Shown: piece by piece, positions 5,080 through 63,444 of the stretch | How positions within the stretch are numbered: position 1 is the first letter of the stretch | Layout of the letters: each line of letters opens with the position of its first letter | Assembly: GCA_964366875.1 (NCBI GenBank) | Contig: CAYIVF010000001.1 | Location: forward strand, 8,123 to 72,122 | DNA: 64,000 nucleotides | Reading direction: 5' to 3' | From: an uncultured Candidatus Saccharibacteria bacterium | GTDB lineage: Bacteria > Patescibacteriota > Minisyncoccia > Minisyncoccales > Staskawiczbacteraceae | Notes under the pieces: model-generated | What the model saw: the letters and a program-made list of their open reading frames with translations, nothing else | Database searches by the model: none | Told to the model about the DNA's origin: nothing | Made by a program: the position numbers and the translations under genes

Positions 5080-5931
5080 TTGCTTGAATTATTTCTCAAA
5101 AGGCGATATTGTAAAAAAAAGATGCTGAGTTTAAAATCAGAAAAATATTTTTTATTAATCGTTAAACCATATAATAATATGAATTCAAAAGAAATTGAGT
5201 CAATTGAAAAAAGATATTTTGAAGAGATTTATTTTTTTGTAGATAAAAATCTTTCGTTCTTCCTTGAAAGATTAAAATCAAAGAATGAAATAAAAAATGA
5301 TTGGCTAAAAATATTCAAAATAACAAGTAGGGCTGCATACAAAAAAGCTTCAGAATTAAATAAAGGCGCCGAAAGAGTGGTGCATAATTTATTTGGTCAA
5401 TATAGGTCATTTGCAGTTAATTCTTCGCCCATTGGTTCGGATTTAATGTTTGAAACTCCAGATGCTTTTATACATTTAGAAGTTAAAACTGCTACCGATT
5501 CTAATCCCGCAGATTTTAAAGGAAAAATACAAATAGCCCAAAATCAGACAACCTATGGAGTTAATCAGACAATAACAGGAAGTCGCTACCATTTTATACC
5601 TAGTTTACCTAAAATTTACTCAAACGGAAAAATCTGTTTGACTTATGTAATTCAAATAATACACGATAATGTAGAAGATTTACCCAAGATTATAATTTTA
5701 CTTTCAATACCCAATGGATTATTAAAGCGCACTTACGGTAATTGTATTAATTCCGGAAAACATTCGAAAAAATTAAACAAGTTAAAATCGAAAGGAGATA
5801 TAAGATTTTTATACAAGAAGGCTAAAAAATTCGAAAATTTAGAAAAAAAACCAAGTAGAATAAAAATTATTTATCCTCAAAGTTACTCTAAAAAATTACT
5901 TGAAGATTTTTTAGGACTGAAGGAATTATAA
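5080..5931 (+). CDS. Hypothetical protein; candidate Type II restriction endonuclease (PD-ExK-like motif). True start may be the internal Met at 5182
   Basis: 283 aa. Contains FETPDAFIHLEVKT (PD...ExK arrangement). Convergent with the adjacent DNA methyltransferase gene, 3' ends overlapping by 6 bp. Confidence 0.35.
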   Translation: MLELFLKRRYCKKKMLSLKSEKYFLLIVKPYNNMNSKEIESIEKRYFEEIYFFVDKNLSFFLERLKSKNEIKNDWLKIFKITSRAAYKKASELNKGAERVVHNLFGQYRSFAVNSSPIGSDLMFETPDAFIHLEVKTATDSNPADFKGKIQIAQNQTTYGVNQTITGSRYHFIPSLPKIYSNGKICLTYVIQIIHDNVEDLPKIIILLSIPNGLLKRTYGNCINSGKHSKKLNKLKSKGDIRFLYKKAKKFENLEKKPSRIKIIYPQSYSKKLLEDFLGLKEL

Positions 5932-7848
5932 TATTTTAATTTTATCACACCTTTTTTTTATAATATTTAGATAATCTTTTTGTAATTCTATACCAATTGA
6001 TTTTCTATTAAGTTCCCTTGCAACCTTTAAGCTTGTTCCACTTCCCACAAATGGATCTAAAACAATGCCGTTTACCGGACAGCAAGCCATTATAGCTTTT
6101 TTTGGTAGTTCTTCAGGAAATATTGCAAAATGGGAATCCTGTAATTTTCCAGTTGCAAAATCCCAAATATCACCAGGATTTTTACCTAACTCATGTGGTT
6201 TTACGGTTTGTAAAACATAATGCTCTTCAGTCATAATTTTATCGTATTTATCATCTTTAATTTCCAAAACTTTTTTTAGTTTTAACCAATCTTCTGGCTT
6301 AGGTAAACATCTTCCGCCTCTATCTGTCCTGAACCAATGTCCAGCAGTATCTTTATAGCCAAATATTTTATCTATTTCTTTACTTGAAATTCCTTTATTT
6401 TTTCTATAATTTTTTATGAAATGTATTATTTCAAGTTCTAAACTACTATCTATTTTGTGTTTTCTTTGTTTAGAATAAAATTCCCCATTAACAGATAATC
6501 TCGCCCCAGGCGAAGCGCCAAGATTTATTTTCTCAGTATTTTTAAATTTACCATTGTATTCATTTTTATTATTACTTGTTTTGTCTTTCCATTTTTCGTA
6601 TTCTTTGACAGATAGCGTTAATGGTAATTCTATTTTTTGATTATTTTTTTCCGTTAGTAAGATTTTTTGTTTAGAGGTTTTTTCTTTTTTCTCCCCATTG
6701 GTTTTATGTGCGATCCTAACAGAATCTAAATCAAAATAATATTCCGGTCTCAAATAACTATTAGGATTTTTAACAAATAAAAATATTGGTTCATAGGTGT
6801 TTGAAAATCTATCTTTTATCGACGAGGGCATTGCATTTGTTTTCCGCCATATTAAAACATTTCTTATTGCCCAACCATTTTTTTGCATTTCCATTGCTAG
6901 TCGAAAAGGGATCATTTGTAGATTCTTATCAACGTATTTATCTCCTATATTTAAAAAATATGCACCATCATCAGTTAAGACCCTTTTTAATTCATTTGTA
7001 ATGTCTATCATTTTTTTGATATATTCTTCTGGTGTTTTTTCATTGCCTATTTGTCCTCCCATTCCATAATCTCTTTGTCCCCAATAAGGTGGAGAGGTCA
7101 CAATGCAATTTATTGATTTGTCGGGTAGCATTTTTAACTTTTCTATAACATCACCAATAATCACTAGTGGTTCGGTATCTTTGGGTAAATCAATAAATTG
7201 ATGTTGGTTTGTTATTTTTTTTTGCAAAACCACTTTCTCTTTTAATTTTTCTAATTCTTCAAATTTTCTTATTATACTAACTACTTTTCCTTGTATTTCT
7301 AATTCTTTTACATAGATTGGTTTAAAATCAGGATTTGCCGGTTGTAGGCGAAATCCGTTTTTCTCTCTATAAATTTTTTTGAGAGTAGTTTCATTGCCAT
7401 TAATAAGCGCAACAACGCTTTCTCCGTTTTCTGCAGTGGATTGTCTTCTAATTATTACCTTGTCGCCGTTGAAGATACCCTCGTCAATCATACTATTGCC
7501 ACTTACCTCTAATGCAAAATTTTCACCGCTTTTGGATAGCAAATTTTTAGGAACTTTTATTTTCTCTGGAACATTGTATGTTATAAGCGGTTCGCCAGCT
7601 GTAATTGTTCCGAGCAAGGGAATCTCTACGAGTTCTGAATTTTTATTTTTTACCAATTCAATGGAGCGCGCCTTGTAATCTGTTTTTTCTAAATATTCTT
7701 TCTCTTTTAGTGTTTTTATGTATTGATGAGCTGTGGGTTTTTTTATTTTAAAATGCTTCGCAATTTCCTTGAGAGAAGGAGAGTAATCTTTTTTGCTAAT
7801 GTATTTTTTAATATAATCTAGAATTTGTTTTTGTTTCGGAGTTAACAT
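5926..7848 (-). CDS. Fusion protein: LexA-like repressor (HTH + S24 autopeptidase) joined to a beta-class DNA methyltransferase (SPPY motif, probably N4-cytosine or N6-adenine)
   Basis: 640 aa. Residues 1-200 align with LexA: IPLLGTITAGEPL (Ala-Gly cleavage site), EVSGNSM (catalytic Ser), TLKKIY (catalytic Lys). The rest carries motif IV (TSPPYWGQRDY) and C-terminal motif I (LDPFVGSGTS), i.e. the beta permutation of amino-MTases. Confidence 0.7.
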   Translation of the reverse strand: MLTPKQKQILDYIKKYISKKDYSPSLKEIAKHFKIKKPTAHQYIKTLKEKEYLEKTDYKARSIELVKNKNSELVEIPLLGTITAGEPLITYNVPEKIKVPKNLLSKSGENFALEVSGNSMIDEGIFNGDKVIIRRQSTAENGESVVALINGNETTLKKIYREKNGFRLQPANPDFKPIYVKELEIQGKVVSIIRKFEELEKLKEKVVLQKKITNQHQFIDLPKDTEPLVIIGDVIEKLKMLPDKSINCIVTSPPYWGQRDYGMGGQIGNEKTPEEYIKKMIDITNELKRVLTDDGAYFLNIGDKYVDKNLQMIPFRLAMEMQKNGWAIRNVLIWRKTNAMPSSIKDRFSNTYEPIFLFVKNPNSYLRPEYYFDLDSVRIAHKTNGEKKEKTSKQKILLTEKNNQKIELPLTLSVKEYEKWKDKTSNNKNEYNGKFKNTEKINLGASPGARLSVNGEFYSKQRKHKIDSSLELEIIHFIKNYRKNKGISSKEIDKIFGYKDTAGHWFRTDRGGRCLPKPEDWLKLKKVLEIKDDKYDKIMTEEHYVLQTVKPHELGKNPGDIWDFATGKLQDSHFAIFPEELPKKAIMACCPVNGIVLDPFVGSGTSLKVARELNRKSIGIELQKDYLNIIKKRCDKIKIL

Positions 7849-18702: not shown

Positions 18703-18934
18703 ATTTAATATACAAAGTGGGGCTTGACCTGCTTTTTGCTTGGAGTAAAATATAGAAATGGCTTCGCCATTTATGTAATTAATCGCTCGGTTGGAATAAA
18801 AGTTTACTTTTATTCCTTCCTTACTCATAATTATAGTAATGCATTAGACCTCTTACTTAAAAATTTTTTATCCCGAAGATTTTTAAGTTTTAAAATTAAT
18901 AAAAGCCGTGAGGCATTTTTTTGTCCCCAATTTC

Positions 18935-21900
18935 ATGACACCAAGAAAAGAAAAAATAAAAAATCACATTGAAAAAGTACAGAAAAGAGATGGAAGAATC
19001 GCTGATTTTGAGCAGCAAAAAATAACTGACGCTATTTTTAAAGCAATCACTGTAGCTGACCAGGGCGATGGAGTAAAATCAAAAAGAGCGTCGGAAAAAG
19101 TTGCGCAAATTCTAAACAGAAGATTCAAAATAGGAGAAATCCCCAGCATTGAACAAATACAAGACATTGTAGAAGAAGTTTTGATACTAGAAGGCCTAGT
19201 TGATACGGCTCGCGCATATATTCTTTATAGAGAGCAGAGAAGAAGGATCAGAGAGATGGGTACGATTTCTGATGAGTCTTCAGAAAAAATTGATAGCTAT
19301 CTAAAAGAGCTTGATTGGCAGATAGCTGAAAACGCCAACATGACATTTTCTTTGCAGGGACTGAACCAATATGTGGGTTCATTCATTTCTAAAAAATATT
19401 GGCTAAACAAGATTTATCCAAAAGAAATAAGGGAGGCAGCAGCTTCAGAAGATTTTCATATCCATAATTTAGAGCTGCTTGCACCGTATACATTTTTCGG
19501 GAGGGAAGTTATAATTGTTAAAAAAAATAACAGAATAAAATTATCCTCCTTTAAAGATATATATGAAGAGATCGAACAACAAGAAATTTTACTGAATGAA
19601 AAAGACGGTGCTTGGGCAAAATACCCCGAGGGTTTATTTATACTAGATAATGATGGATGGGTTAAGGTTTCCCGGTTAGTGAGAAAAAATAAAGAGAGAG
19701 AAATGAGATTTATAAAATCTGAACAAGGTAGAAGCGTTATTGTTACCGATAACCATCCGTTTATAATAAAAAGAAACGATAAAGAAATAGAAATAGAATC
19801 TAAAGATGTAAAAGAATCTGACCTAATTTTTTCCGCCGATATCCGTTATCTTTTAAAAAATGAAGGTCTTTTTTCGAAGAAATATATATACTTGGCCGAA
19901 GAATTGATTAATAAAAAACACAATGAATTTTTTCTTGAGGGATTTGACTGGCAGGATTTTGTCAATAATTGGGGCGGGTCATTGCAGGCAAAGGGGACAC
20001 TTAGCGTTTCTAACGGAGCCAACAGCCTGGATAATTATTTTGAATTGACAGAAGATATTGGATATTTAGTCGGTATTTTCATAGCAGAGGGAAATTATCA
20101 TAGCTGGAAACTGCAGATTACCAACAGCGACGAAGAAATTATTAAAAAAATTCAAAGGATAGGCGCTTCTATCGGAGTAAGGTCATATATTAACGAAAAG
20201 GAAGGCGCCAAAGCAGTTACCTTTAATTGCAGTACTCTAAAAATGATTTTTGAAAAAGTTTTTCAGATAAAGGAGCTCAGTAAAAATAAAAATTTGCCGC
20301 CAGATATATTAACTTACAATACAGATTTTATAAAAGGCATTATCGCTGGCATCATTGACGGAGATGGCAGTGTCCGCTCGCATAAAAGCAAGCATGACGA
20401 TTCCTTGTCGCAGGTTTTGATTAGAGTCTCTTCGCGAACTTTGCTGGAACAACTATCAGTTCTTCTTCAGTTTTTCGGGATTGTGGCAAGAGACAGAATT
20501 AGTAGCGAAGATATTGGAAAGGTAAATATTTTTAGAGGGAAAGAAATTATACAAAATTATCCGATATACGGACTTTGTTTTTCAAAAAAGCAGGGAATTA
20601 ATTTTCCTTCATTTAAATATCAGAAAGCGGCTGCTACTTCAAAACATTGGAGGGCAGAAGAATACGGATGGAATAAAGTTTTAAATAATAAATTTACCAC
20701 AGTTGCTGATGAAGAAATTTTTGATATTACCACCGAATCTGGCACTTTTATTTGCAATGGACTGTTGGTGCACAACTGCGCGGGGTGGGACTTATACGAT
20801 TTTTTAAAAAGAGGATTTGGCGGAGTTTCGGGAAAAATAGAATGCAAACCTCCAAAACATTTGGGCGTGGCTTTAAGCCAACTGGTAAACGTTTTATATA
20901 CCTTGCAGGGAGAAACAGCGGGAGCCAACGCTGTTTCTAATTTTGATACTCTTTTAGCTCCGTTCATCAGGTACGACCATTTAACATACAAAGAAGTAAA
21001 GCAGGCAATGCAGGAATTTTTATTCGGCTGCATGGTGCCAACTCGCGTTGGTTTTCAAACCCCGTTTTTAAATGTATCTTTGGATATAAAACCGCCCACA
21101 TTTCTTGCAAAACAGCCGGTAATTATTAAAGGAGAACCGCAGAAAGAAACTTATGGCGAGTTTCAGGAAGAGATGAACATGTTTATCCGCGCATTTTATG
21201 AGGGTTTAATGGAGGGAGACGCGAAAGGCAGGCCGTTTACTTTTCCCATACCAACCGTTTCTATCGGTAAAGATTTTGACTGGAATAATTCTAATTTAGA
21301 TGCCTTGTGGGAAGCGACTGCAAAATATGGCATAAACTATTTTTCAAATTTTATACATTCAGATATGAGTCCAGAGGATGCTCGCTCGATGTGTTTGGAT
21401 TCCAAAGAAGAAATTTTGATAAGAAATTCCAAAAAAATTAAAAGAATGTCTATTAAGGAGACAGCTGATAACTATAAAGTTGGCGATTTTGATAGAGAAG
21501 GGTGGGCAGAATGCGAAAAGGAAAAAAACCTGGAAGTTTTATCTTTAAATCCAGACAACTTAAAAACAGAATGGTCTCCGGTAAAAAGATTTTTCAGAGT
21601 TTTTGATGATAAGGCTGTCGAAATTTTTACAGAGGATGGTAAAAGCGCTGTTTTTTCGCAAAAGCATCCTATGCCAGTTTTAACAGAGAGAGGTATTGAA
21701 ATGAAATGGTCAAAAGACATAGAAAAAGGAGATTATCTTCTTTCTATAAAAAAAGCAGAAGATGTTTTAGCAAAGGAGTATCAAAAAATAAATGACTTGG
21801 ACTTAGACAATGATTTGTCGTCTATTTTAGGATATTTTATTGCCGACGGAAATTATCTTTTTGAAAGTAGGAGAAGATATAAACATTATGGAGAACCAAG

Positions 21901-24793
21901 AGGGATGCAGTTTACATTTAAAACTGGAGACAAAGAAAACATAAAAACAATAAAAGGTTTAGTTAAAAAAGTATTTGGCATAGATTGTAAAGAAAAACAA
22001 GACCCAAGGTACAATACTTATTATTTATATATTTATAATACAGAGCTTGCAAGAAGGTTGCATAATGCAGGATTTAAGAAATACGGCAGATTACCTCAAG
22101 TCATATTTAATTCTCCCATAGAAGTTATCAGAAAATTTTTAGAGTTTCATTTTAAGGGTGATGGTTATAAAAAGAGGGGTGAAATTCATATCAATGATTT
22201 GGAACTATCAAGAGATTTAGTTTTATTATATTCTTTGACCGGTCAACCAGTGACCTATAAATTAAGGAAGAACAGCCAGGTTATACGTTTACAACATTCA
22301 AAATCTAAAATAAAAAAGAATAATGGCTGGTTAAATAACCCAATTCTATCAGAAAGAGTGCCGGGGTGGATGGGATTTTCAACATTTAAAGTGCCCGGTC
22401 TTACAAAATCGAGAATGGTAGGATTTGATGTATTAGAAAAATATAATGCGCACACAGAAAATAGTCTAAAAATTAAAAATAGCGACATTTATGTTAGCAG
22501 AGTTAAAAATGTAAGCACAAAAAATTATAAAGAATTGAAAGAGTTTTATGATGTAGAGTTGGAAAAAAATCATTTATTTTTGCATTCCTTGGGACAAGTG
22601 TCTTTTAATTGTTGCCGGCTTCGTTTAGACAACAGGGAACTTTACAAAAGAGGCGGCGGATTGTTTGGTTCGGCCCCCTTAACCGGTTCAATCGGGGTTG
22701 TTACGATTAACATGCCCAGGATTGGATATTTATCAAAAACTAAAAAAGATTTTTTTGAAAGATTGGGCCACTTGATGGATTTAGCAAAAGAAAGTTTGGA
22801 AATTAAAAGAAAGGCGCTGGAGAACTTTATGGATAAAGGCCTTTATCCTTATTCTCGCCACTATTTAGACGGAGTTAAGCTTTTAAGAAACTCATATTTT
22901 GGAAATCATTTTTCTACTATCGGGCTGATAGGAATGAATGAAATGCTTTTGAATTTTCTAGAAGAAAACATAGCTTCAAAAAATGGCAAGAAGTTTGCTT
23001 TAGAAGTTTTAGATTTTATGAGAGAGAGGATGATAAAATATCAAGAAGAAACAGGCAATTTATATAACTTGGAGGCGACTCCGGGCGAAGGAACAAGCTA
23101 CAGGCAGGCAAAAACAGACAAAGAAAAGTATCCGGATATTATTACGGCAGGCACCGAAGAGGTTCCATATTATACGAATTCAACTCATTTGCCGGTGGAT
23201 TATACTACAGATCCCTTTGAGGCGTTAAAACTGCAAGATGAACTTCAAACAAAATATACTGGCGGCTGCATAGAGGGGGGAAATAAGGTTTTAACAGATA
23301 AAGGATTGTTGCTCATTGAAGATATTGTGAAAAATTTTGATGAATTAAAACCTATCAAAGCGTTAAGCTATAACAAAGACCAAAAAAATAGCGAATGGGA
23401 TAAAATTTTGGAAGCAGTAAAAATTGATGTAAAAAAACATAATAAAATCAAGATAAAAGGAGAAAAAAACTTAGATATTGTTACATCTGATTGGCATCCT
23501 TTTTTTGTTCTGAAAAGATTTAAGCCAAATCCCGCTTGCCCTATTTGCCACACAGAAACATTTACTCTTAAAGGATTTGCTGGTCATATTAGATGGTATC
23601 CAGATTGCGGTAGAAAATATCAGGATTTTCCCAAGTACCATGTAATAGAAAAAAGAGCAGATGAATTAAAGGTGGGCGATTATATCCTGCAGAATTCATA
23701 TAATTTATATCCTGAAAAAGAAACAGAGCTCAATAATGATTTAATGTGGCTCATTGGATTTTTTATCGGTGACGGCTCTATCTCAAAATATATTGATAAT
23801 AGGGGCGGAAACAATTTAGAGAGGCATAAAATTAGGTTTTTTAGCGAGCACAAAGAAGCATTAAATAAAATAGTAGAAATCCTTAATAAATATTTTTCTG
23901 CTGAAGTAAAAATTATTAAAAACGATAAAAGAAGCGAAAAACTTTTAGAGGTTGCAAGTTCTAAAAAAGATATAGTAGATTTCTTTTTCAAATATGGATT
24001 TTGGGCAGGTGAAAAATCCAGCCGCATATTTATTCCTGATAAAGTGAAAAACAATATCAATAAAGAAAATATTTTTTCTTTATTATCTGGTTTAGCAGAC
24101 AGCGATGGGCATATAAGCAAACGTGATGGAGATTTTGAATATTATTCTATTTCCCAAAAATTGGCTGATGATATTTTAGAAATATGTTCTATTGCCGGAA
24201 TTATGTTCAGCAAGGCTATAAAAAAGACTAAAAGAAAAAACGAATTAGACATCTGGAGGATAAGAATACCCGCCTATGAAGTTACGAAAATAAAATCCCA
24301 CCTAACAAACACTATTCATCTTTTAAGAATTAAAGAGAATTTATCAAACAGAAAGAAACGTTATTTGCCCGTTGTGAGAGTAAAAGAAGTTTCTAAAGTT
24401 GACGTAAAAGATAATCAATTTTACGACTTGATGACAGAAAATAACCACAATTATTTGGCAGGAAAAGATAGTTTAGTATTTGTCCACAATACCGTCTGCC
24501 ACTTGTTTTTAGGAGAGAAAATTTCTGACCCCCAAATGGCAAAAAACTTAGTCAGAAAAGTTTTTGAGAAATTCCATTTGCCGTATATAACGCTTACACC
24601 AACTTTTTCAATTTGTCCTACGCATGGCTATTTATCAGGAGAGCACTTTGAATGCCCGCAATGTACGGTAAAGCAGCCCTGCGAGGTTTATTCAAGAGTA
24701 GTGGGGTATATAAGGCCGGTTCAGCAGTGGCATAAAGGCAAAAAGCAAGAATACAAAGAAAGAAAAGAGTATAAGATGCCAGCTGCAGTATAG
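18935..24793 (+). CDS. nrdD: Anaerobic (class III) ribonucleoside-triphosphate reductase interrupted by three inteins
   Basis: Track ORF 18908-24793 (1961 aa); start more likely MTPRKE at 18935. ATP-cone N-terminus; extein segments match NrdD blocks (HIHNLE, CAGWDL...KPPK, TPF, GGGLFGS...IGVVTINMPRI, YYTNSTHL, C-terminal CxxC...CPxC glycyl-radical/Zn region). Estimated extein total about 720 aa. Confidence 0.85.
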   Translation: MTPRKEKIKNHIEKVQKRDGRIADFEQQKITDAIFKAITVADQGDGVKSKRASEKVAQILNRRFKIGEIPSIEQIQDIVEEVLILEGLVDTARAYILYREQRRRIREMGTISDESSEKIDSYLKELDWQIAENANMTFSLQGLNQYVGSFISKKYWLNKIYPKEIREAAASEDFHIHNLELLAPYTFFGREVIIVKKNNRIKLSSFKDIYEEIEQQEILLNEKDGAWAKYPEGLFILDNDGWVKVSRLVRKNKEREMRFIKSEQGRSVIVTDNHPFIIKRNDKEIEIESKDVKESDLIFSADIRYLLKNEGLFSKKYIYLAEELINKKHNEFFLEGFDWQDFVNNWGGSLQAKGTLSVSNGANSLDNYFELTEDIGYLVGIFIAEGNYHSWKLQITNSDEEIIKKIQRIGASIGVRSYINEKEGAKAVTFNCSTLKMIFEKVFQIKELSKNKNLPPDILTYNTDFIKGIIAGIIDGDGSVRSHKSKHDDSLSQVLIRVSSRTLLEQLSVLLQFFGIVARDRISSEDIGKVNIFRGKEIIQNYPIYGLCFSKKQGINFPSFKYQKAAATSKHWRAEEYGWNKVLNNKFTTVADEEIFDITTESGTFICNGLLVHNCAGWDLYDFLKRGFGGVSGKIECKPPKHLGVALSQLVNVLYTLQGETAGANAVSNFDTLLAPFIRYDHLTYKEVKQAMQEFLFGCMVPTRVGFQTPFLNVSLDIKPPTFLAKQPVIIKGEPQKETYGEFQEEMNMFIRAFYEGLMEGDAKGRPFTFPIPTVSIGKDFDWNNSNLDALWEATAKYGINYFSNFIHSDMSPEDARSMCLDSKEEILIRNSKKIKRMSIKETADNYKVGDFDREGWAECEKEKNLEVLSLNPDNLKTEWSPVKRFFRVFDDKAVEIFTEDGKSAVFSQKHPMPVLTERGIEMKWSKDIEKGDYLLSIKKAEDVLAKEYQKINDLDLDNDLSSILGYFIADGNYLFESRRRYKHYGEPRGMQFTFKTGDKENIKTIKGLVKKVFGIDCKEKQDPRYNTYYLYIYNTELARRLHNAGFKKYGRLPQVIFNSPIEVIRKFLEFHFKGDGYKKRGEIHINDLELSRDLVLLYSLTGQPVTYKLRKNSQVIRLQHSKSKIKKNNGWLNNPILSERVPGWMGFSTFKVPGLTKSRMVGFDVLEKYNAHTENSLKIKNSDIYVSRVKNVSTKNYKELKEFYDVELEKNHLFLHSLGQVSFNCCRLRLDNRELYKRGGGLFGSAPLTGSIGVVTINMPRIGYLSKTKKDFFERLGHLMDLAKESLEIKRKALENFMDKGLYPYSRHYLDGVKLLRNSYFGNHFSTIGLIGMNEMLLNFLEENIASKNGKKFALEVLDFMRERMIKYQEETGNLYNLEATPGEGTSYRQAKTDKEKYPDIITAGTEEVPYYTNSTHLPVDYTTDPFEALKLQDELQTKYTGGCIEGGNKVLTDKGLLLIEDIVKNFDELKPIKALSYNKDQKNSEWDKILEAVKIDVKKHNKIKIKGEKNLDIVTSDWHPFFVLKRFKPNPACPICHTETFTLKGFAGHIRWYPDCGRKYQDFPKYHVIEKRADELKVGDYILQNSYNLYPEKETELNNDLMWLIGFFIGDGSISKYIDNRGGNNLERHKIRFFSEHKEALNKIVEILNKYFSAEVKIIKNDKRSEKLLEVASSKKDIVDFFFKYGFWAGEKSSRIFIPDKVKNNINKENIFSLLSGLADSDGHISKRDGDFEYYSISQKLADDILEICSIAGIMFSKAIKKTKRKNELDIWRIRIPAYEVTKIKSHLTNTIHLLRIKENLSNRKKRYLPVVRVKEVSKVDVKDNQFYDLMTENNHNYLAGKDSLVFVHNTVCHLFLGEKISDPQMAKNLVRKVFEKFHLPYITLTPTFSICPTHGYLSGEHFECPQCTVKQPCEVYSRVVGYIRPVQQWHKGKKQEYKERKEYKMPAAV
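19502..20776 (+). mobile_element. Intein 1 in nrdD with LAGLIDADG homing-endonuclease domain (N-terminal boundary uncertain)
   Basis: Ends ...NGLLVHN followed by Cys+1 (CAGWDL). Block B-like TDNHPF. LAGLIDADG motifs IGYLVGIFIAEGNY and IKGIIAGIIDGDGS. The first residue is not the expected Cys/Ser. Confidence 0.6.
21392..22609 (+). mobile_element. Intein 2 in nrdD with LAGLIDADG homing-endonuclease domain
   Basis: Begins CLDSKEEILI after ...ARSM; ends ...VSFN followed by Cys+1 (CRLRLD aligns with NrdD GCRSF). LAGLIDADG motifs ILGYFIADGNY and KFLEFHFKGDGY. Confidence 0.65.
23267..24490 (+). mobile_element. Intein 3 in nrdD with LAGLIDADG homing-endonuclease domain and an internal zinc ribbon
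   Basis: Begins CIEGGNKVLTDKG after ...KYTGG; ends ...SLVFVHN followed by Thr+1. LAGLIDADG motifs LMWLIGFFIGDGSIS and LLSGLADSDGHIS. Cys cluster CPICHTE...CGRK. Confidence 0.65.
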
Positions 24794-25585: not shown

Positions 25586-25640
25586 AAGGCTCAAGGTGTC
25601 AAGAGAGACAAGTCCTCAAGACTTCAAGGCTCAGAACTTC
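25586..25640 (-). repeat. Array of five CTTGA motifs (coding-strand sense) in the 3' end/3'UTR of GC-rich gene A
   Basis: ggctcaaggtgtcaagagagacaagtcctcaagacttcaaggctc has TCAAG every 8-9 bp. Similar array at 27150-27212. Confidence 0.5.
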
Positions 25641-26386
25641 CGAGTGGACGAGACGCCCAAGAAGTCGTAGGGGGAGTCACCCCAGCCGCCGCTGACACCG
25701 AGACCCTCCGAATCGAAGCGGCCGACGCTGACACGGCCGCCGCCCGAATCCACAGAGGATGTGCGGACGTAGATGTGCTCGAACAGCCGTTCGCCAGTAG
25801 CCAGGTAGTGGCCGATGATGGTATAGACCATCACTTGAGCACTGGGCACTTCATCGTCCTTGCTGAGCAGTGCCTGCTGCTCTTGCCAGTTCTGCGAAGT
25901 GGAATTGTCCACTGGGGTCTTGCGAACCAACTGCCAAGTAATTTCGCCGTGCTTTTTGGAAAATGACTTCTTGTTATAGCAGTCCTGATTGTAGAACAAT
26001 CCCTTGTCCTGCACCTTGCCCCGGATTTCAAGGATCGAGAGCGTGAACACTGCCACGAGCACGTGCGTGTCCTTCGAGTGCCCGAGCACTGCCTCGGAGA
26101 ACGGAATCTCCGAAAGAGCTGCGAATTGCTGGCGGATTGGATTGACCCCGAAGTGCTTGATGGCTTTTTCGACTCCGAAGAAGTTGCGTCCCATAATCTC
26201 ACGGGCACGCTTCTGACTGGTCGTTGGTTCGAATCCGCCGCTAATGGCAAACTTTGCCAAACGACCGACAAATTCGGGATTAGAATTGACCCGAGTGATG
26301 ACAGCATCGGCATCATCGCCTAGGGCTGTGAGAAACTGGTGCCCGGCAGCGTACACGCTACCACTTTCAATCTGTGTCCATTTCAT
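25631..26386 (-). CDS. Hypothetical protein A of a GC-rich paralogous pair (unknown function)
   Basis: 251 aa. Strong RBS AAGGAG 6 nt upstream of ATG. GC much higher than flanks. Paralogous to gene B (shared segments N.EFVGRLAKFAISGGFEP / NEEVGSSYGYLSGYKP; ERLFEHIY...SGGG / ERLQHYD...SDGGDG). Confidence 0.55.
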   Translation of the reverse strand: MKWTQIESGSVYAAGHQFLTALGDDADAVITRVNSNPEFVGRLAKFAISGGFEPTTSQKRAREIMGRNFFGVEKAIKHFGVNPIRQQFAALSEIPFSEAVLGHSKDTHVLVAVFTLSILEIRGKVQDKGLFYNQDCYNKKSFSKKHGEITWQLVRKTPVDNSTSQNWQEQQALLSKDDEVPSAQVMVYTIIGHYLATGERLFEHIYVRTSSVDSGGGRVSVGRFDSEGLGVSGGWGDSPYDFLGVSSTRKF

Positions 26387-26659
26387 GACATTCTCCTTTG
26401 CCGTTAACTCTTGCGAGCGATCGGCTCTGGATATTCTGCAAACGTGCAGTTACGGTCTATCTCGGAATGAGACGAGCGGTTTACCCCTGTTTTTCAGGGA
26501 CAAAACGCTCGCCTCATATTTCTGAACCATAATTTCAAAGAGCTCCCCTTGTATATTTCTATTATAACAAACCATATGAAAATGTCAAGTTTTTAGAGGC
26601 ATTTTTTATTTTAATAATTTTTAAAATAATAATTTGTGGTATTATAAAAAATATAAACC

Positions 26660-26902
26660 ATGATGACTCCGTCAAAAATACTTTTTTATTTTTGCATTTC
26701 ATTTATTGTGGGAATATTTTTAGAGTCAATTATTAAAATTCCCTCAATTTTTATTTGGGGGATTTTAATTTTTGCAACTTTAATTATTTTTATTTGCCTG
26801 CTTTTGTCCATCCTTATCACTGGAAGTAGAGGTTTACTTTCTATATTTGCAGAACTATATCCTCGCATTCCTGTATTTTATGCAGTAGCACCAAGTTTTT
26901 GA
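26660..26902 (+). pseudogene. Duplicated comEC promoter/5' fragment (first ~50 codons of ComEC) without the rest of the gene
   Basis: 26669-26810 is nearly identical to 28339-28481 (MMTPSKILFYFCISFIVGIFLESIIKIPSIFIWGILIFATLIIFICLLLS vs ComEC N-terminus); similarity decays on both sides. Confidence 0.6.
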
Positions 26903-27094
26903 TGAAACCCAGACCTACTCTAGATAAAAGCAAGCAGTATCTCCTAAATCAGCTCGCTCTCGGAAACCTTAATCGCCAAGATTCTGGCTGTTTTCTCTTT
27001 TAAGAGAGATTTCGGCGTTAGCAATCCTTGAACTGCCAAACATTAGCCTACTTTCGTTTTTTATTATACTAAAAAATACAATTATTGGAAGTCA

Positions 27095-27160
27095 GTGTAA
27101 AAAAAGAAGGGGTTGCTTGCATTGTTAGTGCAAGACAATCCCTTTTTGTCGCCGACTTCA
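27095..27160. terminator. Bidirectional terminator-like hairpin (aggggttgcttgcattgttagtgcaagacaatccct flanked by A-run/T-run)
   Basis: Nested stems gggg/ccc and cttgca/tgcaag with aaaaaaa upstream and ttttt downstream. Confidence 0.5.
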
Positions 27161-27212
27161 AGAAATCAAGTGTTAATGGCTCAAGAGAGCCAATGACTCA
27201 AGATTTCAAGAG
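27150..27212 (-). repeat. Array of five CTTGA motifs in the 3' end/3'UTR of GC-rich gene B
   Basis: gacttcaagaaatcaagtgttaatggctcaagagagccaatgactcaagatttcaagagtc. Confidence 0.5.
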
Positions 27213-28080
27213 TCAGACTGCGGGAGGAAGGCGGAGGCCGAACCATAGCTGCCGTCGGCATTGCTAATCCAGCGCGCGCCGAACCTGATCTTGCCATCGT
27301 CGAACTTGAAGAAAGGCGCGAGCCCGAACTGACCATCACCCCCGTCAGAAAACTCAGCACCAGCGCAGTCGATCCAGAGATCGTCGTAGTGCTGTAAGCG
27401 TTCCGGATGCGTCAGAAGCATGCAGGCGACCGCGAAGGGATCGAGACCGAACTGGTAAGAGCTCATGACCTTGCGTGCCCTTCGCACGGACTTGCCAGCG
27501 TGGAGCTTGCCGAACTGGCAGGCAACAACAAGAATGTCATAGTCCTTCTGCTCGTTGCCGAGCTTGTCAAAGGCTTTGACGTTCTTTTGATGCTGACGCA
27601 GGTACTGCGGACCAAGCTTGCCCTCGCGGTAGTTGTAGAACTTGCCGTCGCGGGTTTGCTTGATGAGGTCAAGGACCTTTTGCAGTGCCTCGCCGTAGGT
27701 CTGAGCGATCTTCTGCCACCTTGTGATAGCGAACCACCCCTCGGCATTGGCTGGAAGCGGCTGTTCTGCCAGCTTCTCATCGGCGAACCCGACGCCCGAA
27801 ATTAGCTGACGCAGGCGGTTGGTCTGCTCGGTGATGCCCTTGGGCTTGTAGCCCGAGAGGTAGCCGTAGCTGGACCCAACCTCCTCGTTGGCGAACTGGT
27901 TGGATACCGAGAGCCTCTGAATGGAGGCCACGATGTCGGCTTGGAACACGTCGCCGTTCGCGAAGAGCTTCTGAAGCCCATCCTTGTCGAGATTGACTTC
28001 GGTGAGCGCCTTGTCCCCGGCGTCCTCGACAAACCTTTTGTACTGCTTGACCTGACCGGACGTGATCGACAATGTCGTCA
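27206..28080 (-). CDS. Hypothetical protein B of the GC-rich paralogous pair
   Basis: Track ORF 27206-28147. Likely start MTTLSIT (complement of 28078-28080), preceded by AAGGAG at a 7-nt spacing. High GC; paralog of gene A. Confidence 0.55.
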
Positions 28081-28297
28081 TCGTCAAACTCCTTTTTCCT
28101 TGAGGAATACACTCGAGATTTCCAGAATTCCGCTGGAACGGACTCATCCTCCTTTAAGGCGAGTATTAAAAACACTAACATTTAGTCAATATTCTTAATA
28201 CTCGCCTCAATTTATTCTATTAAAGAACAATACCTATATTATATCGAGAACTAGAGTTTATGTCAAGGGGAGCGTATCAAATTGATAATTATATGAT

Positions 28298-51300: not shown

Positions 51301-51804
51301 ACTACCTTAGTTGCTTCTAATGACCAGGAAATCATTAGGATAAATGTAAAAGCAGATTCAGCCGGCGACATAGAGTTTGTTACTGGCCAATCAAATTACA
51401 TCCGCTTTACTATGGGTGGCGCCGCAGTTGATAACGACACTACCAGCACAACTGAGAACTTTGTTCTAAAGAATGTTACCGATAATGAGACTTTAGACAC
51501 AGTAACCACAGATGTTTCTCAACTTGTGGCTGGCACTGCCAGTTTTGGTTCTGATGGAGTTGCGTATATGGTGAAGTTTGACTTTACCGACAACGCTCTT
51601 ACAATTCCAGCCGGATTAACTAAAGTTATTAAAATGGAAGCAGACCTTAATGACTTTGAAGCTGGAACCGTAAGCAACTACATAAGTGCTACCATTGCTA
51701 ATAGCGCTTCTGACTTTACTTGGAGCGATCTTGACACTGATGCCGTTGCCAACAATACCTTCTTTACTTGGCTGCCATTACAAGGTCTTACTCTGTCAAA
51801 CTAA
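48319..51804 (+). CDS. Large Thr/Gly/Ala/Ser-rich cell-surface protein with N-terminal membrane anchor and peptidoglycan-binding (PG_binding_1-like) domain
   Basis: 1161 aa. N-terminal TM; PG-binding-like segment (GSTGSDVKCLQQILN...YFGSRTLAAVKIYQAEHGW); then about 1000 aa of low-complexity Ig-like repeats. Confidence 0.65.
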   Translation: MSIRKTIITTIVALAVVAVVAPGVAIGTTIDDLLAQIALLQAQLVALQSGGSTGAGTGACAGVTFTRNLTVGSTGSDVKCLQQILNSGATTKVSTTGAGSPGNETTYFGSRTLAAVKIYQAEHGWTPANQVGPLTRQALNASLGTTGGTIPPIIVPTGGGITIGLAASTPAAANVPKGAFNQPITNINLTAGTTDVKISKITITRSGLSANTDIDLVKLFVGTIQKGNGASLNSNNQAVFTLTTPITVAANTTTVLTVKADIKSTATSGATLGFNVAAATDVVSDASTTTGTAVGNLMSVVGTTIGSITIAAGPNSPSSNLAPEVGNTGVRILQMNLQTGSTENVEVRQVIAVKVGTVNTTDISKVELYNDTDGASLGSVTTFDAEGRATFDLASPLLILKGESKNLSVKVDIASGSGKTISAKAKDSGAYTVTAVGKTYGFGVGFASSTWDGTATSQTIAAGSLVVTKSASTPATGFVAPGGSNVPITTFNLEAKGEGVTITEFSNTVILGTATYANITACKLVDESGNVAAGPVDTTAVGTADTTHDDYIRFTDTFTVPLGVHKYTVQCKLASSITSGTIQIGFDDSNIEENASGNDPYVAITAKGAVSNDTITATPQDSDVLGNALTFQAAALTVTNLTTPVLASIVPGQQNIHFANVSLGAASAGENINITSIVVTDDVSGAGDPQGADIQNLRLFDSSITQANCTGTGRAWDSTLTMCRLAPIMQPDSTTVDTDDTTTFTLSTPLVVPKAGSSLVKVYGDFKSSGPAANEVHTFYVAAVTDITAIGATTGTTLTTAMKGSTTSGTGQAMTYASVGTLTTTLDSGKPNSANIAVGDYGITAVPMTKIKLYAPTEAVDVDYVNLTRTSGGTGVPADIANVYVYGSYTGSDANTLLATGTYTGSSVWKFDLTNFTVPVKGTRYLTVRADLNGVLNGATTAYRDAFDLAATGDLVATGQASGTTINASAVVNTQPDMYLYRSVPILSVVTPSSTTLVASNDQEIIRINVKADSAGDIEFVTGQSNYIRFTMGGAAVDNDTTSTTENFVLKNVTDNETLDTVTTDVSQLVAGTASFGSDGVAYMVKFDFTDNALTIPAGLTKVIKMEADLNDFEAGTVSNYISATIANSASDFTWSDLDTDAVANNTFFTWLPLQGLTLSN

Positions 51805-51880
51805 GAGCTGATTGAAGTTTTAGTGAGAACTTAAAAACACTCAGGCCCGGATAATGCGCTAAAGGCATTAGTCCCAGCCA

Positions 51881-51918
51881 AAAACACCCCCGCTTTTTAG
51901 CGGGGTTGTTTTTTTATA
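51881..51918 (+). terminator. Intrinsic terminator (cacccccgc-ttttta-gcggggttg + tttttttat)
   Basis: GC stem followed by a T-run after the surface-protein stop. Confidence 0.75.
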
Positions 51919-51952
51919 AAGTTTTTGCTAAAATCTATTTATAATTATTAAT

Positions 51953-52117
51953 AACCTTGAATTACGAAATGACCTTCAACTCTTTGTATTTTGGTTTTGG
52001 CTACGACTTCGCAAAAATCTTTCGGCAGAATACTCTGTATATGCCTCAAAATTTTTGCTTCGTCTCGCCCGAAAACTAAAACAAAATAGTTCGGAAGGCA
52101 TTTCGTAACTCAAGGTT
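51953..52117. repeat. Imperfect 24/25-bp inverted repeats (51953-51977 and 52094-52117) flanking a 116-bp segment directly upstream of the polysaccharide locus
   Basis: aaccttgaattacgaaatgaccttc vs reverse complement of gaaggcatttcgtaactcaaggtt (23 of 25 match); right repeat ends 12 nt before ATG 52130. Confidence 0.55.
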
Positions 52118-52129
52118 AATAAAAAATTT

Positions 52130-52807
52130 ATGATAAATTTGAGGAATAAAAAACTTATTTTAGCAATTATTATTGTCGCAGTTTTAATTGGAGCAGGAGC
52201 TTTTGAGCTTGTCAAAACAAAACCCTGGCAGTCAAAACCAGAGGGGTTTCCTTATGCGATAGATTTTTCCGAAATTCAAAATATATCAGGAGAGCAATTA
52301 GAAAGATTAAAACAGAATTATCAGACAGCCAAAGAAAAATATGAAAAAGCTCCTAATAGTTTTAGCGCTTTGATGACTTTTGCTTTTGTTTATTATCAAA
52401 TAGGCGATTATGAAAACGCCCGCGACGTTTATATCAAGGTGGGAGAAAACAGCCCCAAAAACTATAATTCCTTTTGGAATCTTGGGAATACTTATATGAA
52501 ATTGCAGGATTATGTTAATGCCGAAAAGGCGTATTTAAAAACTATTGAAAACGGGCCCGACCAATCAAGGCATTATTTAGCGCTCGGAGAATTGTATTGG
52601 TATATGCCGGAAAAGAAAAGCCAGATTCCTGATTTATATAAAAAAGGCCTGGAAACACTGCCAGGCAATTATGATTTATTAATTGCTTTAGCCCAATATT
52701 ACAAAGACGCGGGCGACAAAACCAACGCTATAAAATACTATCAGGAGATAATAGAAAAATATCCGGATAGCAAAGAAGCGATTGAAGAAGAAATAAGAAA
52801 CCTTTAG
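52130..52807 (+). CDS. TPR-repeat protein with N-terminal membrane anchor
   Basis: 225 aa. TM (LILAIIIVAVLIGAGAF) then several TPR-like AxxYxxxG helices. Confidence 0.6.
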   Translation: MINLRNKKLILAIIIVAVLIGAGAFELVKTKPWQSKPEGFPYAIDFSEIQNISGEQLERLKQNYQTAKEKYEKAPNSFSALMTFAFVYYQIGDYENARDVYIKVGENSPKNYNSFWNLGNTYMKLQDYVNAEKAYLKTIENGPDQSRHYLALGELYWYMPEKKSQIPDLYKKGLETLPGNYDLLIALAQYYKDAGDKTNAIKYYQEIIEKYPDSKEAIEEEIRNL

Positions 52808-60200: not shown

Positions 60201-61025
60201 ATGAATCACGAAATTATTATTAAGCCCAAAAAAGGGTTTGCAACCGTAGATTTTAAAGAGCTATGGCGCTACAGGGAGCTTCTCTATTTTTTTGCCTGGA
60301 GAGACATTAAATTACGTTACAAACAAACTGTTATTGGGATTGGTTGGGCGATTTTACAGCCATTTTTAATGATGGTGGTTTTTTCAATTATTTTTGGGAG
60401 CATTGCCAAGGTGCCTTCGGATAATATCCCTTATCCTATTTTTTCTTATGCCGGTCTTTTGTTCTGGAATATTTTTTCCAATTCTTTGAATAATGCCAGC
60501 CAAAGTTTGGTTGTAAGCTCCAATATTATTCAGAAGGTTTATCTGCCCAGAATAATTTTACCAACTGCCTCTATTATTGTTACTCTGGCCGATTTTTTCT
60601 TCGCATTTTTGGTTTTTGCGGGTATTTTAATTTATTATCAGTTTATGCCGAATTTTTTAGGATTAGTTCTTCTACTACCCCTTTTGTTTATAACTATTAT
60701 AGCTTCTATGGGTTTGGGTTTATTTTTGTCGGCTTTAAATGTCAAATATCGCGATGTTCGCTACGCGCTTCCTTTTTTTATCCAACTTTTAATATTTATT
60801 ACCCCGGTTATTTATCCCATAAGCATTGTTGCCGAAAAATATAGATGGATTTTAGCGTTAAATCCAATGACAGGAATTATTGAAACTTTTAAGTCGGCCC
60901 TTTTGGGGACCACAGCTATTGATTGGATAACTTTGTCAATTTCTGTAATTACAAGCTTAGTTTTTTTGCTTTTTGGCCTTTGGTATTTTTTAAAAACAGA
61001 AAAAATATTTGCTGACATAATTTAA
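60201..61025 (+). CDS. ABC-2 type polysaccharide export permease (Wzm/TagG-like)
   Basis: 274 aa, six TM helices; adjacent ATPase gene. Confidence 0.7.
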   Translation: MNHEIIIKPKKGFATVDFKELWRYRELLYFFAWRDIKLRYKQTVIGIGWAILQPFLMMVVFSIIFGSIAKVPSDNIPYPIFSYAGLLFWNIFSNSLNNASQSLVVSSNIIQKVYLPRIILPTASIIVTLADFFFAFLVFAGILIYYQFMPNFLGLVLLLPLLFITIIASMGLGLFLSALNVKYRDVRYALPFFIQLLIFITPVIYPISIVAEKYRWILALNPMTGIIETFKSALLGTTAIDWITLSISVITSLVFLLFGLWYFLKTEKIFADII

Positions 61026-61027
61026 AT

Positions 61028-62314
61028 ATGAATTTCATTATAAAAGTCGAAAATTTGTCAAAAAGATATTGGATTTCGCACCAAAAGAGGGCGCCTTATA
61101 GCACCCTGCGTGAAGATTTAATAAATGTCTTTAAAAAACCAATACATTGGCTGAACGGCCGTAGAAAAAACAAAGAACATATCTGGGCATTAAAAAATAT
61201 TAACTTTTCAGTAGAGCCCGGAGAGATACTTGGGGTTATTGGACCCAATGGAGCGGGTAAATCCACTCTTTTAAAGATTTTAACTAGGATTACCCCTCCG
61301 ACAGAAGGCAAAGCGGTTGTAAGGGGTCGGATAGGCAGTTTATTAGAAGTTGGTACCGGTTTTCACCCGGAGCTGACTGGAAGGGAAAATATATATCTTA
61401 ATGGCGCCATTTTGGGAATGAAAAGAAAAGAAATTAATGGGAAATTTGATGAAATCGTAGAATTTTCAGGCGTGGAAAAATTTTTAGACACTCCTTTAAA
61501 ACGTTATTCCAGCGGAATGAATGTAAGATTGGCATTTTCTGTGGCCGCTCATTTAGAGCCGGAGATTTTATTGATTGATGAAGTTCTGGCTGTTGGCGAT
61601 GCCGCTTTCCAAAAGAAATCATTGGGTAAAATGGAAGAGGTGAGCCGCAAAGGCAAAACAGTGCTTTTTGTTTCGCATAATATGGCCAGCGTGATGAATC
61701 TTTGTCCCAGAACTATTCTTTTGGACTCGGGTAAAATAGTGATGGATGGTCCTACGTCGAATGTTATTGAACACTATATGGGCTTGAAAGAAAATAAAAT
61801 TGCTCAAGTTGTATGGCAAGATCCTCTTTCAGCTCCGGGCAACGAAGAAGTACGGCTTCACAAGGTGCGCGTTTTATCAAACGAGGGGAAGCCAATTTCT
61901 GAAGCAGACATCCAAAAAGAAATTATTGTTGAATTAAGTTATTGGAATCTTAAAGAGGGAGCCAAGCTTTTAACTTCAATTCATTTAGTTAACAGCCAAG
62001 GTGTTACCGTGTTAACAACTTTTAACGCGCCGTCTGCCAGTTTAACCCCTGATTCTTGGTACCATAAGGCAAAACCAAAAGGTTTATTTCGTTCTGTTTG
62101 CAAAATTCCGGGAAATTTTTTAAATGAAGGCCTTTATTTTATTAATGTTTATGTCGCAAGTTATGACGGAACTATAATAGCTCATGTAGCTGAAGAAAAG
62201 GTTATTTCTTTTAATGTTGTTGATACCGGCTCAATGCGCAAGGAATACAGTGGGCCCTGGCTTGGAGTAGTTAGACCCCGTCTTGCTTGGGACACAAAAT
62301 ATCAAGGAGATTAA
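61028..62314 (+). CDS. ABC transporter ATP-binding protein for polysaccharide export (Wzt/TagH-like) with C-terminal extension domain
   Basis: 428 aa. Walker A GPNGAGKST, signature YSSGM, Walker B LLIDEVLAVGD; about 180-aa C-terminal beta-rich extension. Confidence 0.8.
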   Translation: MNFIIKVENLSKRYWISHQKRAPYSTLREDLINVFKKPIHWLNGRRKNKEHIWALKNINFSVEPGEILGVIGPNGAGKSTLLKILTRITPPTEGKAVVRGRIGSLLEVGTGFHPELTGRENIYLNGAILGMKRKEINGKFDEIVEFSGVEKFLDTPLKRYSSGMNVRLAFSVAAHLEPEILLIDEVLAVGDAAFQKKSLGKMEEVSRKGKTVLFVSHNMASVMNLCPRTILLDSGKIVMDGPTSNVIEHYMGLKENKIAQVVWQDPLSAPGNEEVRLHKVRVLSNEGKPISEADIQKEIIVELSYWNLKEGAKLLTSIHLVNSQGVTVLTTFNAPSASLTPDSWYHKAKPKGLFRSVCKIPGNFLNEGLYFINVYVASYDGTIIAHVAEEKVISFNVVDTGSMRKEYSGPWLGVVRPRLAWDTKYQGD

Positions 62315-62322
62315 GATAAATT

Positions 62323-63444
62323 ATGGAAGAAATAAAACCATATTTAAGCATTATTATGGCCTCCCGCAATGATGATTATCAGGGCAACGCGCTAAGCCGC
62401 TTGCAGATGGTTGTTAACAATCTTATTGACCAGGCAAAGCAATATAATTTAAGAGCGGAATTGATAATTGTGGACTGGAATCCACCATCAGATAAGCCGT
62501 TATTGAAAGACGCTGTTTTTTTGCCAGATGATTTGGGGCCCTCTATTGTTAGATTTATTACGGTGCCTTCTTCTATCCATAAAACTTACAGATGTTCTGA
62601 TAAAATAAAGATAATTACCGTAGCGGCTTTGAATGTTGGAATCAGGCGGGCTGAAGGAGAATTTATATGGACGACAAATTCTGATTTATTGTTTTCTGAC
62701 GAGTTGATGCGCTTTTTATCTTCAGAGAAATTAGAAAAAGGTCGTTTTTACAGAGCTTTCAGGTATTCTGTCCGTGAAGATGTTTTGAAATTGAAAGATG
62801 CTCCTTTAAAAGAGCGGTTGGATTTTTGCCAGAATAATATTGTTTTTATCCACCCCAGAAATACTGTTTCCATTCATGGTCTGCCCGACCATCCTATTCT
62901 TCAAACCGCCACTGGAGGCGATTTTATAGTATTTTCAAAAGAGCACTGGCATTTATTGCACGGCTATGTTCAGCTTAACAATCTGGGAGGGTTTACCGAT
63001 TGGTTATTATGTTACATATGTTATTTAGCCGGGCTTAAAGAAAAAATATTAGACGATTCAATGAGAGTTTATCACATCGACCATGCGAGACACGCCAAAC
63101 AGCGGGAAGAATTCTCTAAGGGCATTATTAATACTCTCAGGTATAAGATTTTCCCTAAGATTGATGACAATAATAAATTAAAAATATTAGCAAGAAAAAT
63201 TAATAATTTAAAAAATAAAACATTAGACCTTTTTACAAACATTTTTTACCGTCTATTCGGAAGATTTATAAGAAAATATGGCCCGCCAGGAATCTGGGAC
63301 CGCAATCTTCGCTATTTATATTGGGAATTTCATAAGCTGCTTTTGGATATGCTAAAAGGAAAAAGGTCGTATGTTTATAACGACGATAATTGGGGCCTGC
63401 CCAATGAAAACTTTGCGGAGTTTGTAATAAAAAATGAATCATAA
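62323..63444 (+). CDS. Hypothetical protein, putative glycosyltransferase-like; tandem paralog 1
   Basis: 373 aa. N-terminal YLSIIMASRNDDYQGN...ELIIVDWNPP. Shares a 289-bp identical block with the downstream paralog. Confidence 0.4.
   Translation: MEEIKPYLSIIMASRNDDYQGNALSRLQMVVNNLIDQAKQYNLRAELIIVDWNPPSDKPLLKDAVFLPDDLGPSIVRFITVPSSIHKTYRCSDKIKIITVAALNVGIRRAEGEFIWTTNSDLLFSDELMRFLSSEKLEKGRFYRAFRYSVREDVLKLKDAPLKERLDFCQNNIVFIHPRNTVSIHGLPDHPILQTATGGDFIVFSKEHWHLLHGYVQLNNLGGFTDWLLCYICYLAGLKEKILDDSMRVYHIDHARHAKQREEFSKGIINTLRYKIFPKIDDNNKLKILARKINNLKNKTLDLFTNIFYRLFGRFIRKYGPPGIWDRNLRYLYWEFHKLLLDMLKGKRSYVYNDDNWGLPNENFAEFVIKNES

Follow-up and report, generated by a model that had tools for sequence, protein, structure and literature searches.

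A pair of inverted repeats lies directly upstream of a surface-polysaccharide locus in the window, the 64-kb stretch of DNA that we analysed, and raises the question of whether the enclosed segment is a promoter that is flipped to switch the locus or a piece of DNA with a different origin. Invertons such as E. coli fimS and the capsular-polysaccharide promoters of Bacteroides have short inverted repeats around a segment of ~100-300 bp upstream of genes for surface structures. They carry a promoter inside the segment, are served by a site-specific recombinase, occur in two orientations, and have neither flanking target-site duplications (TSDs) nor IS ends. The window locus resembles them in its short inverted repeats around a segment upstream of surface-structure genes, but none of the features that distinguish invertons is found there. 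Our analysis instead points, with a probability of about 0.93, to an IS982-type MITE inserted in the leader of a gene for a TPR-repeat protein.

Boundaries and fold of the element

The inverted repeat reported in the first-pass annotation is present. The left arm at 51953-51977 (AACCTTGAATTACGAAATGACCTTC) differs from the reverse complement of the right arm at 52094-52117 (AACCTTGAGTTACGAAATGCCTTC) by one substitution and one 1-nt indel, and the right arm does end 12 nt before the ATG at 52130, as had been described. None of the window shuffles contains a match to the 25-mer with up to three mismatches, so the repeat stands far above chance. The arms had been taken to enclose a distinct interior of 116 bp. 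However, a repeat finder extends them to 51940-51998 and 52072-52130, well past 25 nt, and complementarity runs through almost the entire segment to give one hairpin. The minimum-energy fold of the 201-nt region is a single continuous imperfect hairpin on either strand, at -63.9 kcal/mol (z -9.5) for the plus strand and -74.5 kcal/mol (z -11.4) for the minus strand; the corresponding values for the MITE body alone (51955-52115) are -57.6 and -68.7 kcal/mol. The inverted repeat is the base of this hairpin, which covers the entire 161-bp element. The locus comprises the following features:

51888-51916, plus strand: intrinsic terminator (stem at 51888-51905, then a T-run) that serves the upstream 1161-aa gene, conserved in orthologs and outside the MITE
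51926-51934, plus strand: candidate extended -10 (TGnTAnAAT), TGCTAAAAT, for the TPR gene, upstream of the insertion point
51948-51954, no strand: left TSD copy, TTAATAA, 7 bp, a direct repeat of 52116-52122
51955-51971, plus strand: left TIR, CCTTGAATTACGAAATG, an exact 17-mer common to at least 120 genome loci and to the ends of ~1-kb IS982-family elements
51955-52115, no strand: MITE body, 161 bp, non-coding, an imperfect foldback throughout, bounded by TIRs and TSD
52099-52115, minus strand: right TIR, reverse complement CCTTGAGTTACGAAATG, 16/17 identical to the left TIR
52116-52122, no strand: right TSD copy, TTAATAA; deleting 51955-52122 gives collinearity with the ortholog at locus L124
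52130-52807, plus strand: TPR-repeat protein gene (225 aa; Pfam TPR families), whose leader now holds the MITE

The terminal 17-mer common to both arms is CCTTGARTTACGAAATG. The arms as first annotated are a real inverted repeat, but the outer 2 nt of each (AA and TT) lie outside the element and belong to the 7-bp TSD. Since TTAATAA is nearly its own reverse complement, it mimics an extension of the inverted repeat. We also considered a boundary one base further out, which would give an AC start and a 5-bp TSD. The window copy fits both models, and family members at loci L070 and L064 favour the CC start and 7-bp TSD because the ends of their 7-bp TSDs are not complementary. A TA target-site duplication of the IS630/Tc1-like kind, prompted by the A/TA before the TIR, was rejected because direct repeats of 6-8 bp explain the flanks much better. 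Two ORFs touch the element, one of 40 codons inside it and one of 79 codons on the minus strand that overlaps it, both with TTG starts.

Empty sites and the leader of the TPR gene

Pfam matches bear out the surface-polysaccharide genes that had been annotated downstream of the repeat (TPR, Wzy_C, glycosyltransferase and others). The TPR gene is followed by a gene for a Wzy_C O-antigen-ligase-like protein on the opposite strand, and further downstream lie genes for a cytidylyltransferase, a flippase, a GT2 glycosyltransferase and a UDP-glucose dehydrogenase. At six orthologous loci, with TPR proteins that are 56-74% identical, the gene order sigma70, DUF5667, ~1160-aa protein (1161 aa in the window), TPR, Wzy_C is kept. 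The spacer between the large protein gene and the TPR gene measures 95-171 nt at these six loci, all of which are without the element, and 325 nt in the window. Deletion of the element and one TTAATAA (168 nt) from the window leaves a spacer of 157 nt that aligns base for base with that of the closest ortholog, L124 (restored window, ...ATTATTAATAAAAAATTTATG; L124, ...AAAATTAATCTAAAAAATTTATG). Judged by this alignment, the window and its orthologs are a classical filled-site/empty-site pair, and by the same comparison the insertion is recent and postdates the split from the nearest sampled relatives.

The orthologs are also informative about the promoter of the TPR gene. In all seven lineages a terminator follows the large gene, which agrees with the terminator first annotated upstream of the repeat in the window, and a few bases on there is a motif resembling TGnTAnAAT. 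The versions of this motif in the six orthologs are TGCTATAAT, TGTTAAAAT, TGCTATAAA, TGCTATATT, TGCTATAAA and TGTTATTAT, and this conservation suggests that it is the extended -10 promoter of the TPR gene. A promoter scan that demands a -35 box did not flag the motif at 51926-51934, and it found no -35/-10 (sigma-70-type) pair inside 51955-52115 on either strand. The distance from the -10 box to the ATG is 6-29 nt in the orthologs; in the window, 20 nt separate the -10 box from the MITE and 14 nt separate the MITE from the ATG. Should this be a true promoter, transcription of the TPR gene would start near 51941 and the whole element would fall within the 5'UTR. Given its position between the conserved -10 box and the ATG, the MITE is probably transcribed, so that the TPR mRNA would carry it as a strongly folded 5'UTR. 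A long 5'UTR stem had been listed as an alternative to the invertible promoter; such a stem probably does exist, as a consequence of the MITE having landed between the -10 box and the start codon and not as a separate origin of the repeat.

The interval from the stop codon of the 1161-aa gene to its terminator holds two further small hairpins, at 51815-51880, which orthologs retain although their proteins are no more than 62-74% identical. Compensatory changes are seen in the first stem (AGCGA/TCGCT, AGTGA/TCACT, GCAA/TTGC), and the second hairpin reads TAATGC-GCTAAAG-GCATTA. They have no Rfam match and are a candidate for a conserved 3'UTR element or a small RNA.

The absence of a recombinase gene from the window, which the first-pass annotation had pointed out, is in line with our domain scan: none of the 40 window ORFs of at least 150 aa that were scanned, a set that leaves out three ORFs at 60201-63444, has a recombinase domain. 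All three independent assemblies of the locus, two of them full and one partial, have the segment in a single orientation.

Elsewhere in the window, a 640-aa ORF at 5926-7848 on the minus strand combines LexA DNA-binding, Peptidase_S24 and N6_N4 DNA methyltransferase domains, an unusual fusion of a LexA-like repressor with a methyltransferase. At 18908-24793 on the plus strand, an anaerobic ribonucleotide reductase (NrdD) of 1961 aa is split by several inteins, with Intein_splicing matches in three stretches as well as LAGLIDADG_3 and Hom_end homing-endonuclease domains. The GC content rises to 0.48 within 26001-28000, compared with ~0.36 elsewhere, and no Pfam family matches the two closest ORFs, which lie on the minus strand at 25631-26386 and 27206-28147.

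The dispersed family and its IS982-type partners

We scanned the terminal 17-mer against one genome per species of bacteria and archaea (596 Gb) and found it at 120 genome loci or more, mostly in MAGs of Patescibacteria. By our own calculation, chance alone should produce ~140 single matches in a collection of 596 Gb, and we therefore take as evidence only copies that are paired or that bear TSDs. Among the matches listed, many MAGs have several loci, many loci consist of a plus/minus pair 100-320 nt apart, and most host labels are Staskawicz-, Sacchari-, Doudna-, Kuenen-, Kerfeld-, Morani- or Vogelbacteria. At least 62 elements with paired TIRs exist besides the window copy; they range from 34 to 358 bp, with lengths clustering near 140 and 171 bp, and 52 of the 62 lie outside ORFs of at least 100 aa. 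Nearly all family members have strongly structured interiors, and several unrelated interiors occur between identical ends. Copies that are 84-90% identical to the window element are present at unrelated loci in other MAGs of Patescibacteria (L094, L055, L093 and L008). No second copy was found within the 64-kb window, either with the 25-mer at three mismatches or with blastn-short. A MITE had been the other alternative offered by the first-pass annotation, which had named dispersed copies of the repeat beforehand as counting against an inverton; with such copies found in related genomes, that alternative is the one that holds.

The flanks of the family members were compared in 64 non-redundant elements with both ends, the window copy included, using the boundaries CCTTG...CAAGG. 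Direct repeats of 5-8 bp flank 37 of these 64 elements (7 bp, n = 21; 6 bp, n = 12; 8 bp, n = 2; 5 bp, n = 2), whereas random re-pairing of the flanks yields ~2 elements whose repeat is at least 5 bp long. The commonest TSD in the family is thus 7 bp long, as in the window, and the preferred target is AT-rich, roughly T-N5-A.

Several other occurrences of the TIR deserve mention. Minimal elements of 34-35 bp, which consist only of two TIRs back to back, are found at L027 3632-3666, L041 2328-2362 and L053 263-296; the first is flanked by a 6-bp duplication and the other two by only 2-3 bp. Seven loci of Candidatus Anammoxibacter OFTM134 (L005, L018, L039, L068, L092, L114 and L117) hold a different repeat in which the 17-mer happens to occur. 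The sequence upstream of the 17-mer is conserved there (...ATCATCAAGGCTAAAG|CCTTGAGTTACGAAATGTARCTCA...), and no partner arm was found within the distance usual for a MITE; this repeat probably represents the end of a separate family. MAGs labelled 'uncultured Gammaproteobacteria' (L002, L027, L041, L051, L069 and L089) and a 'Lysobacteraceae' MAG (L099) also contain TIR-bounded elements, several of which have TSDs. The local GC content at these elements is 0.30-0.45, and they point either to hosts outside Patescibacteria or to unreliable record labels. Matches in Epilithonimonas, Bifidobacterium, Streptococcus, Acidobacteriaceae and beta- and delta-proteobacteria were set aside as chance, having no partner arm and mostly a different GC content. 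Viral contigs gave four single TIR matches, one of which may belong to a full-length element of ~1.1 kb with the same TIRs at L212 7361-8501 (IMGVR_UViG_3300032203_000026, classed as viral) and may hint at a vehicle of transfer.

The same ends also bound transposase genes. At locus L032, the TIRs lie 1001 bp apart within a 6-bp TSD and enclose an ORF of 277 aa that matches the NCBIfam transpos_IS982 equivalog at 133.4 bits (cut-off 130) and Pfam DDE_Tnp_1_3 at 9.5e-31. With this transposase as the query, we retrieved 80 metagenomic loci encoding relatives at 47-77% identity. TIRs of the type C[CT][TG]TGAATTACGAAA bound 58 of them at 969-1037 bp, including five with a near-exact match to the 17-mer, and a further 19 have one end only, mostly on short contigs. 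TSDs of 7 bp are common among these IS982-type loci, one of which (L143) belongs to the Hainich H43 assembly that also contains the window's contig. Judged by these common ends, the partner elements tie the MITE to IS982-family transposases. No transposase was found in the 64-kb window itself by tblastn with the IS982 transposase.

IS982-family elements are ~1 kb long and encode one DDE transposase, and their direct repeats vary in length (7 bp for IS1187); their ends mostly start with AC, with a CC start in 5 of the 69 ISfinder members, and the IR consensus is 5'-AC(N)6T(N)5TT (PMC7335449). Insertions of IS982 members in promoter regions can alter expression, including by creating promoters. 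The full-length relatives found here agree with this description in their length of 969-1037 bp, their single DDE transposase ORF above the IS982 cut-off and their short TIRs, while the 7-bp direct repeats match those of IS1187 and the CC start is shared with the minority of ISfinder members. The window element differs in being 161 bp long and without a transposase, and the hosts here are Patescibacteria. Its TIR fits the consensus only in part, with T at position 9 but with a CC start (as placed by the TSDs) in place of AC, and AT in place of TT at positions 15-16. Its similarity to the full-length IS is limited to the terminal ~17-21 nt, and we therefore set aside the idea that internal deletion of the IS gave rise to the MITE interior.

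Comparable elements are known from other bacteria. An IS982-derived MITE, MITECca01, has been described in Cardinium (PMC9769881). Like the present family, it is short and non-coding, has IS982-like inverted repeats and many copies, and is presumably moved by intact parental copies. However, its TIR sequence is different, it is ~240 bp long as opposed to 161 bp, and it is confined to one endosymbiont lineage, whereas the present family spans many lineages of Patescibacteria in several subfamilies with unrelated interiors. The bcr1 elements of the Bacillus cereus group, ERIC and Correia are likewise intergenic elements of 100-170 bp with TIRs, short direct repeats and long hairpins (PMC3184786). 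Their sequences and transposase partner are unrelated to those described here.

Taken together, these comparisons suggest how the locus may have arisen. An IS982-type transposase would have recognised the 17-nt TIRs and mobilised the element in trans. Insertion at an AT-rich target (roughly T-N5-A) by a 7-bp staggered cut, followed by repair, would have produced the duplication of TTAATAA. The TPR gene would have received the element in its short leader after the split from the nearest sampled relatives, and transcription through it would now place a hairpin with a ~60-bp stem (~ -58 kcal/mol, plus strand) in the TPR 5'UTR. It may in this way have some effect on TPR expression.

Conservation of the hairpin and alternative readings

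The hairpin has been maintained by paired changes. Seven copies of the window subfamily from four assemblies, aligned at a mean column identity of 83%, have a full-length foldback in common; of its 60 pairs, 17 have changes on both sides that keep the pairing. Column shuffles give 9.2 +/- 1.9 such pairs, none of 500 shuffles reaches 17, and slid controls give 0-4. The 171-bp sister subfamily (18 copies) has 36 compensatory pairs out of 63, compared with 16.1 +/- 2.2 in shuffles, none of which reaches 36 in 500 attempts, and 10-15 in slid controls. Either selection on the hairpin, as DNA or as RNA, or conversion of one arm by the other could account for this pattern. Upkeep of a hairpin by compensatory change has been documented for other bacterial MITEs, such as bcr1 (PMC3184786). 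The sister subfamily also has an almost invariant unpaired GC(A/T)ATAAT at columns 70-77 (for example, L004 2255-2262), which resembles a -10 box. We considered this internal TATAAT box as a mobile promoter, a role that is doubtful given its inconsistent orientation to neighbouring genes.

The compensatory changes bear on a reading in which the element is a MITE by origin and has since been selected as a regulatory 5'UTR module, its hairpin altering the TPR mRNA in its stability, its translation or its processing, for example by RNase III or RNase E. Expression from the conserved promoter requires transcription through an element that sits between the -10 box and the ATG, and there are precedents. 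The bcr1, ERIC and Correia elements are often co-transcribed with neighbouring genes, and some co-transcribed MITEs affect mRNA stability, among them ERIC, which introduces an RNase E cleavage site; compensatory changes are also known in bcr1, a transcribed element (PMC3184786). However, six orthologs function without the element, and the covariation can equally be explained by the needs of transposition or by arm-to-arm conversion. Moreover, the orientation and position of family members relative to neighbouring genes are inconsistent, which argues against a uniform role at the RNA level. We therefore consider selection as a 5'UTR module unlikely, while noting that it would be an addition to the MITE origin.

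A small-RNA gene or cis-regulatory RNA of a non-mobile kind, possibly encoded by the minus strand, would fit the strong structural covariation and the better fold of that strand (-74.5 as against -63.9 kcal/mol). However, no promoter or terminator brackets the element on the minus strand, and its presence/absence polymorphism, its TSDs and its copies at unrelated loci are the marks of mobile DNA. The whole window has no Rfam match at gathering thresholds; searches by E-value of 51700-52300 and of the sister element return only generic long-hairpin miRNA models, far below threshold, the best being a plant miRNA-precursor model at 32 bits vs 195. We regard this reading as very improbable. A scan of the window for tRNA and tmRNA found none. 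The long hairpin also suggested 6S RNA or SRP RNA, which we rejected since it has no central bubble and no Rfam support, and REP/RAYT-type palindromes were set aside in view of the TSDs and the link to IS982.

Least probable of all is an inverton in which a serine or tyrosine invertase flips a promoter segment and so switches the TPR/O-antigen-ligase/glycosyltransferase locus: the geometry does fit, with inverted repeats of ~24 nt around ~116 bp directly upstream of the locus, but an inverton cannot explain the TSD, the empty site in all six orthologs or arms that serve as TIRs throughout a dispersed family with 7-bp TSDs and also bound IS982 transposase genes, and the near-palindromic interior without a detected -35/-10 pair, the conserved -10 box outside the element, the lack of a recombinase among the 40 ORFs scanned in 64 kb and the single orientation leave the first-pass proposal unsupported.

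The IS982-type MITE thus replaces a tempting but wrong annotation of a phase-variable promoter with a recent insertion that is mapped to the base. It also brings to light a widespread family of MITEs and IS982 elements that share a very conserved 17-nt end across many lineages of Patescibacteria. A literature search covering MITEs and IS982 in Patescibacteria and the candidate phyla radiation yielded no account of the present family, which seems undescribed, although its biology is ordinary. Patescibacteria have small genomes with short intergenic spacers. Repeats of this kind break assemblies, and several family copies do lie at contig ends; they can also change the expression of adjacent genes, and their presence or absence at a site can be used to track strains.

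With its strong compensatory evolution, the hairpin offers a clean data set on why MITEs retain their structure. It is conceivable, if improbable on present evidence, that the IS982-type MITEs of Patescibacteria are directly selected for their ~60-bp foldback and that the hairpin is hence functional. If so, mobilisation in trans might depend on the hairpin, which could, for instance, bring the two ends together as one duplex when the DNA is single-stranded. Alternatively, it might act as a portable RNA module that gives any gene behind it a new level of mRNA stability or translation, in which case the TPR gene beside the O-antigen-ligase cluster of a genome-reduced symbiont would have come under the control of a MITE-borne 5'UTR.
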